Shown here in pieces: positions 1-54,319 of a stretch of DNA of 64,000 bases (position 1 is its first letter; every line of letters begins with the position of its first letter). The stretch comes from Escherichia coli (GTDB lineage: Bacteria; Pseudomonadota; Gammaproteobacteria; Enterobacterales; Enterobacteriaceae). The translations under genes were made by a program, and so were the position numbers. The notes beneath the pieces were generated by a model that had not been told where the DNA came from, searched no databases, and worked only from the letters and a program-made list of their open reading frames with translations. The DNA lies in NCBI RefSeq assembly GCF_050920415.1, contig NZ_CP169309.1; one strand, written 5' to 3'.

Positions 1-230
1 GAATCGCTTTCAGAAAGGGTTTTTAAATAAATGTCCTGCACTACCCAGGTGGCAGGATAAGCAATGATCGCTGCGGTAATAAATACCCAAATTCCCTTCA
101 AGCCAATTTGTACTGGCATCAGCACGGTTCCGGCACCAATCGCCATGCCTATGCATAATAAAACCCAGCCGAAGTCGTAGCGTGTAAACGGCATTTTCTG
201 ATCGTGTTTCGGTAGTGTGTTGTGCTGCAT
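1..230 (-). CDS. yhjV: Putative transporter YhjV, N-terminal part only (runs off the window start)
   Basis: Minus-strand ATG at 228-230 opens a frame reading [41 protein letters not shown]..., hydrophobic and transporter-like. Position next to ldr/bcsG matches K-12 order. The listed ORF 10-387 (-) is in a different frame. Confidence 0.6.
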
Positions 231-588
231 AAAGTCCTGTCCAGAAAGAAGTCGGCCTCGCAAAAATGAATAAACCCAGTTTCTCTTGCGCAACAGGTGG
301 AGAAGTCGAATACGCAGTATGTAAAAAATGAGGCAATAGATTCACTGGGGAGGTCGCGAGGAGGCGCAATTCTACAAAATTGCGCATTTCACTACCAGTC
401 TGGAGTCAGCCCGGATATGAACTGCAACTATTGCAAATAAAGAAATTAAGCTGGAAGGCATCACGCAATGAGGAAGATTGCCGGGTGCTGACGGTAAAAA
501 GCAATCGTAAAATCAGCGGCAAGCCGGAAAGGTTCCGGTGAGGCGCAATGTTGCGGGGGCTTAATCCCTGGTGGCATTGGTTGCTGGA

Positions 589-657
589 GAGAGAAAACCC
601 CCGCACGTTGCAGATATTCACCTGACAACATCACGGGGGCTAATCTTGAACCTAGAC
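589..657 (-). ncRNA. rdlD: Rdl antisense RNA, antitoxin of ldr (unit 1)
   Basis: Reverse complement gtctaggttcaagattagcccccgtgatgttgtcagg...gcgggggttttctctc matches my recollection of RdlD and ends in a GC stem plus U-tract. Ends are approximate. Confidence 0.45.
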
Positions 658-705
658 CACTCAAGAATAGCCGCGAAACGTTGTCATTACAACACAGGCG
701 GCTAT

Positions 706-813
706 ATGACGCTCGCAGAACTGGGCATGGCCTTCTGGCATGATTTAGCGGCTCCGGTCATTGCTGGCATTCTTGCCAGTCTGATCGTGAACTGGCTGAA
801 CAAGCGGAAGTAA
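706..813 (+). CDS. ldrD: Ldr-family type I toxin, 35 aa (unit 1)
   Basis: ATG at 706; MTLAELGMAFWHDLAAPVIAGILASLIVNWLNKRK. Small hydrophobic peptide with basic C-terminus, matching LdrD. Confidence 0.85.
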   Translation: MTLAELGMAFWHDLAAPVIAGILASLIVNWLNKRK

Positions 814-863
814 CGTGTCAGACGGGCGTCAGGCTGCCGTAATGGCAATTTGCGCCCGGACCA

Positions 864-895
864 GGCCGCAGGGATAAAACTCTGCGGCCTTTTTC
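864..895 (+). terminator. Rho-independent terminator of ldr unit 1
   Basis: Stem ggccgcag...ctgcggcc followed by tttttc. Confidence 0.6.
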
Positions 896-1071
896 GTAAG
901 AAAAATGCAACGGTTGCAAGCGGATAATATTCTGCGGAATGCGCAGCACAGAGTGAAGAAGTGATGGATTCTGGAACAGAAAAACAGTCGTAGAATCAGC
1001 GGCAAGCCGGAAGGGTTCCGGTGAGGCGCAATGTTGCGGGGGCTTTATCCCTGGTGGCATTGGTTGCTGGA

Positions 1072-1140
1072 GAGAGAAAACCCCCGCACGTTGCAGGTAT
1101 GCACCTGACAACATCACGGGGGCCATTCTTGCATCCAAAC
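1072..1140 (-). ncRNA. rdlD: Rdl antisense RNA (unit 2)
   Basis: Same position in the repeat as unit 1. The 5' part differs (ccattcttgcatccaaac variant). Confidence 0.4.
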
Positions 1141-1188
1141 AATACAAGAATAGCCGCGAAACGTTGTCATTACAACAGAGGCGGCTAT

Positions 1189-1296
1189 ATGACGCTCGCA
1201 GAACTGGGCATGGCCTTCTGGCATGATTTAGCGGCTCCGGTCATTGCTGGCATTCTTGCCAGTCTGATCGTGAACTGGCTGAACAAGCGGAAGTAA
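1189..1296 (+). CDS. ldrD: Ldr-family type I toxin, 35 aa (unit 2)
   Basis: ATG at 1189; peptide identical to unit 1. Confidence 0.85.
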   Translation: MTLAELGMAFWHDLAAPVIAGILASLIVNWLNKRK

Positions 1297-1346
1297 CGTG
1301 TCAGACGGGCGTCAGGCTGCCGTAATGGCAATTTGCGCCCGGACCA

Positions 1347-1378
1347 GGCCGCAGGGATAAAACTCTGCGGCCTTTTTC
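1347..1378 (+). terminator. Rho-independent terminator of ldr unit 2
   Basis: Same hairpin plus T-run as unit 1. Confidence 0.6.
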
Positions 1379-1555
1379 GTAAGAAAAATGCAACGGTTGC
1401 AAGCGGATAATATTCTGCGGAATGCGCAGCACAGAGTGAAGAAGTGATGGATTTCGACGAACAAAAATGGCCGTAGAATCAGCGGCAAGCCGGAAGGGTT
1501 CCGGTGAGGCGCAATGTTGCGGGGGGCTTTATCCCTGGTGGCATTGGTTGCTGGA

Positions 1556-1624
1556 GAGAGAAAACCCCCGCACGTTGCAGGTATGCACCTGACAACACCA
1601 CGGGGGCCATTCTTGCATCTAGAC
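1556..1624 (-). ncRNA. rdlD: Rdl antisense RNA (unit 3)
   Basis: Same position in the repeat; approximate ends. Confidence 0.4.
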
Positions 1625-1672
1625 CATTCAAGAATAGCCGCGAAACGTTGTCATTACAACAGAGGCGGCTAT

Positions 1673-1780
1673 ATGACGCTCGCAGAGCTGGGCATGGCCT
1701 TCTGGCATGATTTAGCGGCTCCGGTCATTGCTGGCATTCTTGCCAGCATGATCGTGAACTGGCTGAACAAGCGGAAGTAA
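1673..1780 (+). CDS. ldrD: Ldr-family type I toxin, 35 aa (unit 3)
   Basis: ATG at 1673; MTLAELGMAFWHDLAAPVIAGILASMIVNWLNKRK (L to M variant). Confidence 0.85.
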   Translation: MTLAELGMAFWHDLAAPVIAGILASMIVNWLNKRK

Positions 1781-1830
1781 CGTGTCAGACGGGCGTCAGG
1801 CTGCCGTAATGGCAATTTGCGCCCGGATCA

Positions 1831-1862
1831 GGCCGCAGGGATAAAACTCTGCGGCCTTTTTC
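1831..1862 (+). terminator. Rho-independent terminator of ldr unit 3
   Basis: Same hairpin plus T-run. Confidence 0.6.
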
Positions 1863-2038
1863 GTAAGAAAAATGCAACGGTTGCAAGCGGATAATATTCT
1901 GCGGAATGCGCAGCACAGAGTGAAGAAGTGACGGATTCCGGAACAGAAAAACAGTCGTAGAATTAGCGGCAAGCCGGAAGGGTTCCGGTGAGGCGCAATG
2001 TTGCGGGGGCTTTATCCCTGGTGGCATTGGTTGCTGGA

Positions 2039-2107
2039 GAGAGAAAACCCCCGCACGTTGCAGGTATGCACCTGACAACATCACGGGGGCTAATCTTGAA
2101 CCCAAAC
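2039..2107 (-). ncRNA. rdlD: Rdl antisense RNA (unit 4)
   Basis: Same position in the repeat; approximate ends. Confidence 0.4.
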
Positions 2108-2155
2108 AACTCAAGAATAGCCGCGAAACGTTGTCATTACAACAGAGGCGGCTAT

Positions 2156-2263
2156 ATGACGCTCGCAGAACTGGGCATGGCCTTCTGGCATGATTTAGCG
2201 GCTCCGGTCATTGCTGGCATTCTTGCCAGTCTGATCGTGAACTCGCTGAATAAGTGGAAGTAA
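2156..2263 (+). CDS. ldrD: Ldr-family type I toxin, 35 aa (unit 4, C-terminal variant)
   Basis: ATG at 2156; MTLAELGMAFWHDLAAPVIAGILASLIVNSLNKWK. C-terminus differs from the other copies (W to S, R to W). Confidence 0.75.
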   Translation: MTLAELGMAFWHDLAAPVIAGILASLIVNSLNKWK

Positions 2264-2313
2264 CGTGTCATGCGGGCGTCAGGCTGCCGTAATGGCAATT
2301 TGCGCCCGGATCA

Positions 2314-2345
2314 GGCCGCAGGGGTGAAACTCTGCGGCCTTTTTC
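2314..2345 (+). terminator. Terminator of ldr unit 4, placed convergent with the bcsG 3' end
   Basis: Hairpin ggccgcaggggtgaaactctgcggcc plus T-run, immediately before the bcsG stop at 2350. Confidence 0.55.
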
Positions 2346-2349
2346 GTTC

Positions 2350-4029
2350 TTATTGCGGGTAAGGCACCCAGTCGCCGCCGTTCAGGCGAACGTACGGTTT
2401 ATCCTGGTATTGAATAACTACTGCATTTGAGTTCTCGGAGACCGGTGCTGTTTGTGGCAACCCACTGGTGAGTTTTTTCCAGTCAACATTGTCTTCGGTG
2501 AAAATCTTACCATCAAGAACGCGAACCACCAGATCGGAGATAGCCAGGAAGCTGCTCGGTTGGTTGATGACAATCGGTGCCCCCTGATGTGGTGCCTTCA
2601 TGCCGAAGAATTTCACCCCAACGGGGACGTCTGTGATAGACGGGCTAGGGATATCACGTAGGCCAGATACCTGCATTCTGTCGCCCTTCAGCGCGCCACC
2701 GTGTTCCGGCACCACTACCACCATCACTTTACGACCCGATTTCTCCAGTTCAGTAAAGAAGGCGTCCAGCTCATCAAAGAATTTCTGCGCTCGCGCTTTG
2801 TAATCCGCTGTTTTGCTGACGCCCGGATAATGGTTGCCGTCATGCAGTGGAAGCGTGTTGTAGAACGTGGCACTACGGCTGTTTTTATCTTTTTCGGTAA
2901 CGTCCAGCCAGCGGTTAAGCACGGCGGTATCGTCATAAACCGGCGAACCATCAAAGCCCAACAAAATAACCGGCAGATTTGTTTGATCCATCAATTCGGT
3001 CTGCATGCCGCCATTTTCGCGAACTTCTTTCAAAAAACCGCCGAACTGGCCGTTATGTCCCATCATCAGGTGCTGGGTAAAGCCCAGTTTCGACAGGTTA
3101 TCAAACAGATAGCAGTCGTTATTTGCCGGTTGATACAGATTAGTGTGCGAAGTCTGCCCGCAGCTGGCGCGCAGTAAACGGATCGCCGCCGGGCCACTGT
3201 AGGAGGTGGCGGAGTTAAAGTTCTTGAACTCAATATCGAAATGCGACCACAGCGGATGCGACATCAACCCGGCGGCTTCAATATCCGACCAGGAAAGCGA
3301 ACAGATATTAATCACCAGTAGTTCAAATGGCTGAGCATCAGCGGGCAGCGAAGACGGGAAGGTCGATTTACGTTTCGCCTCCGCGTTATAGAAATTATTC
3401 AGCCAGGCGTTAAGGTTCGCCGTTGTTGGCGGTGCAGTTTGTGCGGGCATATCACCCACTACCGGTGCGCCACCCGTCGCCGCAACGGTTGCCGCTGCGT
3501 TACCACCCGTCGTTGTTACAGTGGTCGTCGGTTGACCGGCAGGCCACAAGGAGAAACTTGGTCCCGCCAGGGTAAGTACGTTCAGCCATAGCAGAATGGC
3601 AACCACAAAAACGGTAATGCGAATCCATTGTGACAGGAATAACCAGGCCACTAATAAAACAAAAATGGCCCCAATCATCTGCCAGTTAATAAAGCGTGTG
3701 ACAAGGTCGATTAAATAATCGGTACTGAACCCCGCCACCTGCGAACCCTGGCTCATTATGCTTTCCGGGCCAGGCAACCAGGTGTCATGCCAGAACAAAG
3801 CAAAGCCGATCGGCAGGGCAATCCAGTGGCGTAAGCGATGCAGGCTGTAGCGCGGAATGGGCATCAGCAGAAACGCGGCAAACACCAGATTGAGGAGCGG
3901 ATGGAAGTTAAGATATCCCGCCCACAACAGGCCGAACTTAACCAGAAAATAGAAGTTCCAGCCGGAAAGGCCGCGCCAGTATTGCCAGAGGGAAGAAGGC
4001 ATGGCGGTATTTTGCGTAAATTGAGTCAT
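2350..4029 (-). CDS. bcsG: Cellulose phosphoethanolamine transferase BcsG (YhjU)
   Basis: 559-aa ORF with N-terminal membrane segments and a C-terminal sulfatase-like domain; length and position match BcsG. Confidence 0.9.
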
Positions 4030-37188: not shown

Positions 37189-37203
37189 TTTTTACCCAGA
37201 CAT

Positions 37204-37309
37204 AAAAAAAACCCGGCATAGGGGACCGGGAAGAGGATAGTCTGCCGTCTCCAGACTAATAAACCGTTATAACACTCCCTGTTGGCACGGGAAACTTTGT
37301 GCTCTCAGT
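37204..37309 (-). ncRNA. gadY: GadY small RNA, antisense to the gadX 3' end
   Basis: Reverse complement begins actgagagcacaaagtttcccgtgcc and ends in a poly-U terminator (A-run 37204-37211 on plus). Ends are approximate. Confidence 0.6.
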
Positions 37310-37555
37310 AAGTTAAATATAACTTTTACTGGAGATAAGATCAGCCATTTTTTTATAAACATAAGCTATGCGCTGTGTGAAAATATATTCTTCTTGCATT
37401 TTCTTATTATCAATTAACTGTTATGTCAAACTACTTTTTGGATAACTTTTGGTCCTACCAAATATGGCAGTTTATGCACGAAGAAGCGGTCTGGCATCAT
37501 TTCATTAGTATACTGAAATTGAAATAATCGCAGTAATGAAATATAAGGGATAGTC

Positions 37556-42942: not shown

Positions 42943-43280
42943 TTTAGTCCCTGAAAATTCTTGAGATATAACGGTTCTTTAAATTGCGCGCGAGGAGAGG
43001 TATGAGGGATTTACAGACCAGCGGCATAGTGGGGTTGTCAGCCAGTAAGATGGGATGCAAGCACAGTGATCGACATGGTGAGGTCAACGACAAAAAAAAT
43101 GTTGCCGTTCTGCCAACAGTTCCTGCCAGCATTCGGGCAACGAAGGGTTCTACTGGTGGATACACATACCAGGGGAATAAAGTCGTTTTCGCCTCTCCTT
43201 TAGTCATCACCGGGGATAATGAAATCAGCATCTGCATCCCTCTTCATGCCTGCCATCATTTTCAGTTAATTATGTCCTGA

Positions 43281-53849: not shown

Positions 53850-54000
53850 ATTGCGCTCCTGATTGTTGCACTTAGTGTCTCTCTTCGAAGCGGATAAGTC
53901 AAAAACATATATGTTTTAACGAATGCATAAGTGCAAAAGTAAGTAATAGGTGTGAATTTTGAGTTGGGTATTCATTTGAAAGGAAGGCTGAATCAGGATG

Positions 54001-54083
54001 TAAAAAAACCGACTTTGCGTCGGTTTTTTACTCTTCAGCCAGAGTTGGTGGCTCTGGCTGGAGTGAGAATGCCCACATCTAAC
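54001..54083 (-). ncRNA. agrB: AgrB small RNA (antisense regulator of dinQ)
   Basis: Repeat unit with terminator hairpin aaaaaaaccgactttgcgtcggtttttt at 54002-54030; segment complementary to the dinQ 5' region; spacing to arsR matches K-12 as I recall. Ends are approximate. Confidence 0.5.
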
Positions 54084-54234
54084 GGTTCAATACTATTAGC
54101 CAGTGGCTAACATTGCAAGCGTTAGCGATTTCTTCAGCTGGCGAAGGGACAGTTTGCTATACATGGTGGTGAAAGAGGATTGATATACTTTCATCGGGTC
54201 GCTGCCGTACCAAGCCTTGTCCGAATCCGGACGT

Positions 54235-54319
54235 AAAAAAACCGACTTACGTCGGTTTTTTTACTCTTCAGCCCTGAGTTGGTGGCCCTGGCTGGAGTGA
54301 GATAGCCATCATCTAACAC
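54235..54319 (-). ncRNA. agrA: AgrA small RNA (paralog of agrB)
   Basis: Second copy of the same unit, with hairpin at 54234-54262. Ends are approximate. Confidence 0.5.

Follow-up and report, generated by a model that had tools for sequence, protein, structure and literature searches.

A four-unit LDR-D-type ldr/rdl array at the yhjV–bcsG site of Escherichia coli, one allele of a common copy-number polymorphism

We analysed a 64-kb stretch of the Escherichia coli contig NZ_CP169309.1 (the window), which carries between the transporter gene yhjV and the cellulose phosphoethanolamine transferase gene bcsG a tandem array of ldr/rdl cassettes: type I toxin-antitoxin pairs with a small toxin, Ldr, encoded on one strand and an antisense RNA, Rdl, on the other. 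This is very probably a natural four-unit array of the LDR-D type at a conserved site, and one allele of a polymorphism that ranges in E. coli from one to at least five units. The system and its locus are both known, and so is the copy-number state, a common one that has been annotated before. A single lead, an island of divergence in the 5′-tail of the Rdl RNAs, reaches past existing knowledge.

Tandem Repeats Finder returned a single tandem array in the whole window (497-2347; period 483, 3.8 copies, 95% matches, 0 indels, score 3341), in agreement with a preliminary description of this DNA in which four head-to-tail units of about 483 bp were placed at 495-2345. Mean column identity in an alignment of the four units is 93%. 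Homology begins ∼10 nt 5′ of a TAAAAT/TAGAAT element and extends past the terminator and an 84-nt spacer. The parts assigned to each unit in that description, namely an open reading frame (ORF) for a 35-amino-acid Ldr peptide, a minus-strand Rdl and a terminator, are found in all four:

497-979, plus strand: unit 1, 483 bp; Rdl-1 at 592-657 (minus strand, 66 nt), ldr-1 ORF at 706-813, terminator at 863-890, spacer at 896-979
508-513, plus strand: putative −10 element of ldr-1, TAAAAT, with a transcript start placed near 520 from the sequence
980-1462, plus strand: unit 2, 483 bp; Rdl-2 at 1075-1140 (minus strand), ldr-2 ORF at 1189-1296, terminator at 1346-1373
991-996, plus strand: putative −10 element of ldr-2, TAGAAT
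1463-1946, plus strand: unit 3, 484 bp; Rdl-3 at 1559-1624 (minus strand), ldr-3 ORF at 1673-1780, terminator at 1830-1857
1947-2347, plus strand: unit 4, with no spacer after the terminator; Rdl-4 at 2042-2107 (minus strand), ldr-4 ORF at 2156-2263, terminator at 2313-2340
1-230, minus strand: 5′-end of yhjV, the left flank, from the RefSeq annotation of the near-identical strain N96
2350-4029, minus strand: bcsG, the right flank, from its ORF and the RefSeq annotation of N96

Each of the plus-strand terminators consists of 11 pairs followed by TTTTT; eight terminator-like sites were found against 2.3 ± 1.5 in shuffled sequences. That of unit 4 lies 9 nt from the stop codon of bcsG, with which it is convergent.

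The Rdl-like antisense RNAs claimed for the array were recovered as four full-length matches to the Rfam family rdlD (RF01813; E ≤ 1e-16; gathering threshold 50 bits), with scores of 85.5, 82.9, 81.8 and 90.4 bits for Rdl-1 to Rdl-4, and their 3′-ends show the described G+C stem followed by UUUUCU. All stem pairs are standard in the four RNAs as aligned to Rfam, and minimum-energy folds range from −29 to −32 kcal/mol. In Rdl-1 a single-stranded 5′-tail (nt 1-16) precedes the stem-loop and terminator (nt 17-62); nt 1-11 are unpaired in the minimum-energy fold. The Rdl 5′-ends (657, 1140, 1624 and 2107) are separated from the ATG codons of ldr (706, 1189, 1673 and 2156) by a gap of 48 nt in every unit. 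A putative promoter for Rdl-1 lies on the minus strand at 692-664 (−35 TTGTAA, 692-687; 17-nt spacer; −10 TATTCT, 669-664), the start at 657 being 7 nt downstream of the −10; this arrangement recurs at +483, +967 and +1450 in units 2-4 and is near-invariant across E. coli units. The putative ldr −10 elements would yield an RNA of ∼375 nt; the ldrD mRNA, as Kawano reportedly found in 2002, measures ∼370 nt.

Two changes at 614-618, in the Rdl loop and its complement, are peculiar to unit 1, which has GGUGAAUAUC where the other units have GGUGCAUACC. The in-frame ATG that lies inside the Rdl target of units 2-4 (1099, 1583 and 2066) is ATT at 616-618 in unit 1, and is absent from ldrA/B/C.

As to the toxins, ldr-1 encodes MTLAELGMAFWHDLAAPVIAGILASLIVNWLNKRK behind a Shine-Dalgarno sequence, AGGCGG, at 696-701, and ldr-2 encodes the same peptide. 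The ldr-3 product differs by L26M and is identical to K-12 LdrD at 34 of 35 positions; the Met26 variant is the commonest Ldr peptide. The ldr-4 product carries W29S and R34W. That these are Ldr-type toxins, as had been claimed, follows from a Pfam Ldr_toxin (PF13940) match across the full length of the most divergent of them, that of unit 4 (1-35 of 35, E = 9.7e-22), together with exact matches of all three distinct peptides to public entries named 'type I toxin-antitoxin system toxin Ldr family protein'; an NCBIfam scan of the Ldr peptides and of a 25-amino-acid leader candidate (see below) gave 0 matches. The comparison of the units with LDR references, proposed as a check, shows 32-34 of 35 positions identical to LdrD of K-12 and ∼21 of 35 to LdrA; the array is therefore an LDR-D-type expansion, and both marks of that subgroup, an LdrD-type peptide and the yhjV–bcsG site, are found. 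A transposed LDR-A/B/C array is ruled out by the identity of only ∼21 of 35 to LdrA. The W29S/R34W peptide is present on 82 contigs, against 831 and at least 1000 for the two common variants; tryptophan (Trp) is a described signature of the Fst/Ldr superfamily (PMC7472228). A related W29S variant occurs in the bcsG-proximal unit of strain 2D. Over its first 3,000 bases the window differs from N96 at one position, 754, where C (Pro17 of Ldr-1, in the PxxxG motif) stands for T (Ser17); the DNA thus stems either from a strain very closely related to N96 or from a corrected form of the N96 record.

Copy number at the site was surveyed in 5,426 complete E. coli genomes with flank-only queries. Two matching pieces are joined when the distance between them is at most half the query length plus 500 nt, and the query length therefore sets a cut-off for the length of the array:

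Flank query of 600 nt, joining cut-off 800 nt: 2,096 of 5,426 genomes joined
Flank query of 1,200 nt, joining cut-off 1,100 nt: 2,626 of 5,426 joined
Flank query of 2,200 nt, joining cut-off 1,600 nt: 4,447 of 5,426 joined
Flank query of 3,200 nt, joining cut-off 2,100 nt: 5,274 of 5,426 joined

The spans of listed rows (1,001, 2,084, 3,567 and 5,050-5,051 nt) agree with one, two, three and four annotated Ldr genes. The copy classes that result are flank spacings rather than counts of units in each genome (a genome with an insertion sequence in the site, e.g. H51, is mis-binned) and are subject to the biased sampling of RefSeq:

1 copy at yhjV–bcsG: 2,096 genomes, 38.6%
2 copies: 530 genomes, 9.8%
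3 copies: 1,821 genomes, 33.6%
4 copies: 827 genomes, 15.2%
Longer, interrupted or flank missing: 152 genomes, 2.8%

An evenly spaced sample (60 of 5,438 matching E. coli records) contained 22, 6, 21 and 9 records with one, two, three and four copies, and a further record, strain 2D, with five. Query coverage was rejected as a measure of copy number: one unit matches all four units of the query, and coverage is 92% even for one-copy genomes.

The rarity of four copies implied by the preliminary description is thus not borne out: ∼15% of complete genomes have the four-copy spacing, the RefSeq record of N96 (E. coli, Tibetan pig) already annotates 'Ldr family protein (x4)', and a multi-copy array has been published for BL21(DE3), where a 2017 paper shows three ldrD/rdlD pairs between bcsG and yhjV in a figure of transcriptome small RNAs (PMC5435950). 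Its account of K-12 is accurate: MG1655 has one ldrD/rdlD at bcsG–yhjV, with ldrA/B/C and rdlA/B/C at kdsA–chaA. N96 is the only record at least 99% identical over the array; the next four-copy arrays are at 98.2%, and among the matches listed twelve records with four annotated Ldr genes reach 98.1-98.2% identity across the full array. The exact combination of sequences is rare; the four-unit architecture is common. With the four-copy state in roughly one complete E. coli genome in seven, the finding itself carries little weight. It does mean that K-12 is not representative for the copy number of this type I toxin-antitoxin system, a single unit being present in only ∼39% of complete E. coli genomes. 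Lineage-specific duplication is the conclusion that Fozo et al. reached on how Ldr loci evolve (PMC2887945).

Two further observations concern the arrays of other strains. Adjacent units with identical Rdl RNAs occur in 2015-01-2097 and in strain 2D (units 2-3) and look like recent duplications, from which it follows that copy number is still changing today. GMM060, which has four copies with Rdl tail alleles in the order of the window, carries a stop at codon 5 of the unit 3 ldr (1772-1879 of its locus, L006), annotated in RefSeq as a shortened ORF; an array can therefore persist with individual units knocked out.

Tandem repeats of 483 bp at 95% identity are hard for short reads, and N96, the closest record, is labelled 'whole genome shotgun'. 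It is nonetheless extremely improbable that a single unit or a shorter array was expanded to four by mis-assembly of the repeats. Over their first 400 positions any two units show 13-24 differences, and no two have the same Rdl tail, a result that copying one unit could not yield; moreover, ∼827 independent complete genomes have four-unit spacing, and the tail alleles of GMM060 stand in the same a-b-c-d order as those of the window.

The use of flank spacing in the census is among the points that weigh against the reading of the locus as a natural four-unit LDR-D array and allele of a wider polymorphism. Others lie within the array. Unit 3 has one additional G in a G-run near 1520 (1516-1524), within a 5′ untranslated region (UTR) that is otherwise nearly invariant. 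The promoters and the ldr start are placed from hexamers, and a strict sigma-70 scan of positions 1-2600 listed no promoter. The toxin of unit 4, a minor allele, lacks the superfamily Trp, and the units, as far as their sequences suggest, need not all be active.

Some of these features could also be taken to mean that the array is partly decayed, with some units working pairs and others drifting relics carried along by the repeat structure. To the extra G of unit 3 and the W29S and R34W changes of unit 4, with loss of the Trp, may be added the ATT for ATG at 616-618 and the altered Rdl loop of unit 1, and the stop codon in the unit 3 ORF of GMM060. We regard such decay as unlikely: the four ORFs are intact, the four Rdl RNAs score 82-90 bits with intact stems, and the Shine-Dalgarno sequences, terminators and Rdl promoter hexamers are conserved, while the unit 4 peptide remains a full-length Pfam match and is found on 82 contigs. 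In addition, codon positions 1+2 differ within arrays at a rate of 0.014 against 0.050 for synonymous third positions; purifying selection on the peptides is therefore indicated.

Variation among the units is far from evenly spread. Thirty-four of 400 aligned columns vary among the four units of the window, and 10 of these fall in a hypervariable mosaic segment, the variable part of which is Rdl nt 3-17:

641-661: hypervariable segment of unit 1
1124-1144: the same segment in unit 2
1608-1628: the same segment in unit 3
2091-2111: the same segment in unit 4

Nine sites split the units 2:2, eight of them within 641-660, and they do so in three ways:

Units 1+4 versus 2+3: 641, 643, 649, 651, 660
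Units 1+3 versus 2+4: 653, 655, 658
Units 1+2 versus 3+4: 861

The segment itself is composed of two sub-blocks:

Unit 1: ctaatcttgaac + ctagacc
Unit 2: ccattcttgcat + ccaaaca
Unit 3: ccattcttgcat + ctagacc
Unit 4: ctaatcttgaac + ccaaaca

The mosaic reported earlier at the Rdl 5′-end is thus real, and at that place; the alternation of two variants by which it was characterized is not, the two sub-blocks assorting independently to give four combinations. Recombination between copies, which had been suggested on its account, is supported by the three incompatible 2:2 groupings.

Across 19 E. coli loci there are nine tail alleles, present in different orders and numbers per strain and built from one of CUAG/UUGG/UCAG/UAAG, then GUU/AUG/AGU, a constant CAAGA, and finally UUAG/AUGG. 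The order is a-b-c-d in the window and in GMM060, a-c-d in SCU-316, a-d in SSGw1 and d alone in ATCC 8739: such shuffled orders and numbers are what unequal crossing-over predicts. The pattern, read from sequence, fits unequal crossing-over together with short-tract exchange, recurrent mutation being the weaker alternative. Under the latter the mosaic would have arisen by repeated point mutation, at a hot spot or through convergent selection. The incompatible blocks are only 3-6 nt long (653-658 versus 641-651 and 660), below typical conversion tracts, and the segment is far more variable than its surroundings in every genus, which makes parallel changes plausible. Yet whole blocks (CUAG/UUGG, GUU/AUG/AGU, UUAG/AUGG) recur in many combinations across strains, each swap amounts to 2-4 simultaneous identical substitutions, more easily produced by exchange, and site 861, distant from the tail, follows a third grouping. 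We therefore consider an origin by point mutation quite improbable and favor exchange between units.

The same segment stands out when more units are compared. Rdl nt 1-16 have a nucleotide diversity of 0.182 among 54 E. coli units, against 0.044 for third codon positions and 0.035 for the remainder of the unit. Pairs of units from within the same array give the following rates (differences over sites):

22 nt 3′ of the Rdl stem: 349/1,474, 0.237
Synonymous third positions: 114/2,280, 0.050
Codon positions 1+2: 67/4,690, 0.014

In 20 of 20 arrays, among them three from Klebsiella, one from Kluyvera and those of both Escherichia loci, the tail lies above the synonymous rate, ∼5-fold overall, unit pairs and strains not being independent. 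In a second computation, to which arrays of Atlantibacter and Pluralibacter were added, the tail had a higher rate than the remainder of the unit in 13 of 15 arrays; in the other two the units are near-identical and recently duplicated. Synonymous sites were chosen as yardstick over a chance test of co-resident tails because old paralogues differ anyway and strains are phylogenetically related.

For Rdl nt 1-18 on the four targets the predicted duplex energies are −27 to −30 kcal/mol in cognate combinations and −6 to −27 kcal/mol, with 2-6 mismatches, in non-cognate ones. The prediction is asymmetrical (Rdl-2 on ldr-3, −27.0 kcal/mol; Rdl-3 on ldr-2, −20.8 kcal/mol): discrimination would be partial and asymmetric because UUGG tails can wobble-pair with CUAG-type targets. 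We tentatively raise the possibility, which we place somewhat short of probable, that the ∼22 nt at the Rdl 5′-end are a target-recognition 'barcode' selected to differ between co-resident units, the array then being a set of partly orthogonal pairs and not of redundant copies. In the Sib RNAs cognate specificity is set by target-recognition domains located where the sequence varies most (PMC2943612); by analogy the Rdl tail may be a specificity determinant. A literature search found no paper in which Rdl specificity is tested. If true, the proposal would explain why near-identical cassettes persist in tandem, and would supply natural orthogonal antisense/target pairs.

The target of the tail lies in a predicted hairpin of the ldr mRNA, which is one of several predicted structures:

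636-674, plus strand: hairpin in the ldr 5′ UTR of unit 1, with stem arms 644-649/661-666 and hypervariable loop 650-660, from minimum-energy folds
1119-1157, plus strand: equivalent hairpin of unit 2
1603-1641, plus strand: equivalent hairpin of unit 3
2086-2124, plus strand: equivalent hairpin of unit 4
680-689 (a short way 5′ of the ribosome-binding site) with 840-849 (3′ UTR), plus strand: long-range helix 9 in unit 1, from minimum-energy folds and a consensus fold
542-547 with 851-856, plus strand: long-range helix 1 in unit 1, invariant in the consensus fold

The loop and 5′-arm of the hairpin are the parts with which the Rdl 5′-end shares complementarity. In 35 units from several enterobacterial genera the hairpin stem covaries, pair 143/159 changing from UA to CG six times and pair 144/158 from GC to UA/AU four times. 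In the consensus of these units 98.6% of the cells of helix 9 are paired, with one-sided variation at five pairs and two-sided variation at two. The predicted fold-back, comprising both long-range helices, would enclose the Shine-Dalgarno sequence and the start codon, and is predicted in all four units of the window. For the whole consensus structure 98.8% of cells pair, versus 37-52% with partners slid, and 11 pairs change on both sides, versus 5.0 ± 1.6 in shuffles. Together these predictions are suggestive of a full-length ldr mRNA that is inert and folded back in the manner of hok.

From the sequence and published work on ldrD/rdlD of K-12 we infer how the array might work and change. Each unit would give rise to an ldr mRNA of ∼375 nt, running from near the TAAAAT/TAGAAT −10 to the G+C hairpin terminator and encoding the 35-amino-acid membrane toxin. 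Full-length mRNA is predicted to hold its ribosome-binding site in the hok-like 5′–3′ fold-back. The promoter within the ldr 5′ UTR (TTGTAA, 17 nt, TATTCT) would direct synthesis of the 66-nt Rdl from the opposite strand. This RNA would block toxin synthesis by pairing with its own mRNA at nt ∼73-138, 5′ of the ribosome-binding site. In K-12 RdlD represses LdrD toxicity, by a proposed mechanism that resembles that of hok/sok (PMC4147584), and RNase III cleaves, in vivo, the double-stranded RNA that arises from ldrD and rdlD (PMC7373196). Unequal homologous recombination between the 483-bp repeats would change copy number, and short-tract exchange would shuffle the sub-blocks of the Rdl 5′-tail.

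A candidate leader ORF was also noted:

548-625, plus strand: candidate 25-amino-acid ORF in unit 1, with a good ribosome-binding site (GAGG, 4 nt, ATG), ending inside the Rdl target
1031-1108, plus strand: its copy in unit 2
1998-2075, plus strand: its copy in unit 4

In unit 3 this frame is shifted by the extra G, and its ATG is fused in frame to ldr in an 88-amino-acid ORF (1514-1780). Among 35 units from other genera three have lost the ATG, and the frame is not conserved. The published name 'ldrX' was given to neither candidate ORF, since neither is conserved across genera.

The closest known relative is LDR-D of K-12 MG1655, at the same locus and in the same orientation, with Rdl opposite the 5′ UTR 48-49 nt upstream of the ATG, peptides identical at 32-34 of 35 positions and a nearly identical Rdl stem-loop. 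It differs in having one unit rather than four, a tail allele (GUCUAGAGUCAAGAUUAG) absent from the four of the window, and Phe3 in LdrD where all units of the window have Leu3. The array of BL21(DE3)/C43(DE3) is likewise of LDR-D type, at the yhjV–bcsG site and with 483-bp spacing (PMC5435950), but consists of three units in the order d-b-e as opposed to a-b-c-d, two tail alleles being common to both; the RdlD antisense RNAs of the three BL21(DE3) pairs have been placed from transcriptome data (PMC5435950). LDR-A/B/C of K-12, between kdsA and chaA, is a tandem array of the same family with a conserved 5′ UTR core and Rdl terminator stem; it has, however, another locus, a period of 535 bp, peptides of another subgroup (∼21 of 35) and a different Rdl loop.

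Comparison with more distant systems is also instructive. The hok/sok systems of plasmid R1 and of chromosomes share, as proposed, an antisense RNA with a single-stranded 5′-tail that pairs upstream of the toxin ribosome-binding site (PMC4147584), as well as the long-range 5′–3′ fold-back of the mRNA that is predicted for ldr. The toxin family is a different one, the leader ORF that would correspond to mok is not conserved across genera, and membership of the Rfam family sok is rejected: plus-strand matches score 27-30 bits, below the gathering threshold of 59. These sub-threshold matches lie over the ldr 5′ UTR consistently in all four units (555-708, 1038-1191, 1522-1675 and 2005-2158, plus strand), in line with the proposed hok/sok-like organization. 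The ibs/sib systems resemble the array in being multi-copy type I systems of near-identical paralogues, with variation concentrated in the antisense recognition region (PMC2943612). Their sequences are unrelated, Sib spans the whole ibs ORF, and discrimination between cognate and non-cognate partners is experimental for Sib and predicted for Rdl.

The site is occupied well beyond E. coli. One genome per bacterial species was searched for the 19-nt Rdl terminator core, and flanking genes were identified by tblastn. Of 51 loci found, those in which Ldr/Rdl adjoins bcsG and/or yhjV come from many species of Citrobacter, Salmonella enterica subsp. arizonae and diarizonae, the Klebsiella oxytoca group, Kluyvera, Pseudocitrobacter and other Escherichia. 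Tandem arrays adjacent to bcsG occur in K. michiganensis (three units), K. spallanzanii (three), K. oxytoca (two) and Kluyvera sichuanensis (three). Presence in multiple genera, combined with the occurrence of arrays, indicates that the site is old and that amplification has been recurrent.

At three Atlantibacter loci (L042, L056 and L057), tandem units 475-520 bp long combine an Rdl-like core and 5′ UTR with a downstream ORF for a conserved 30-amino-acid hydrophobic peptide, MTFKQAFWLAVLTSIIGPIVVALIRYFFSF. This peptide has no significant Pfam match and is not Ldr; it may represent a swap of toxins on a conserved RNA scaffold. An rdl of E. coli type, with tail allele d, on a 503-nt contig labelled Bacillus sp. 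EB106-08-02-XG196 (L052; coverage 0.66) is almost certainly assembly contamination.

A whole-window Rfam scan returned several other RNAs. Two matches to AgrB (54000-54082 and 54233-54316, minus strand; 90 and 84 bits, threshold 40) mark the dinQ/agrA/agrB locus, a further type I toxin-antitoxin system, in which the antisense RNA is duplicated. The scan also found the small RNAs GadY (37199-37312, minus strand, 150 bits) and ES205 (43092-43163, minus strand, 105 bits).

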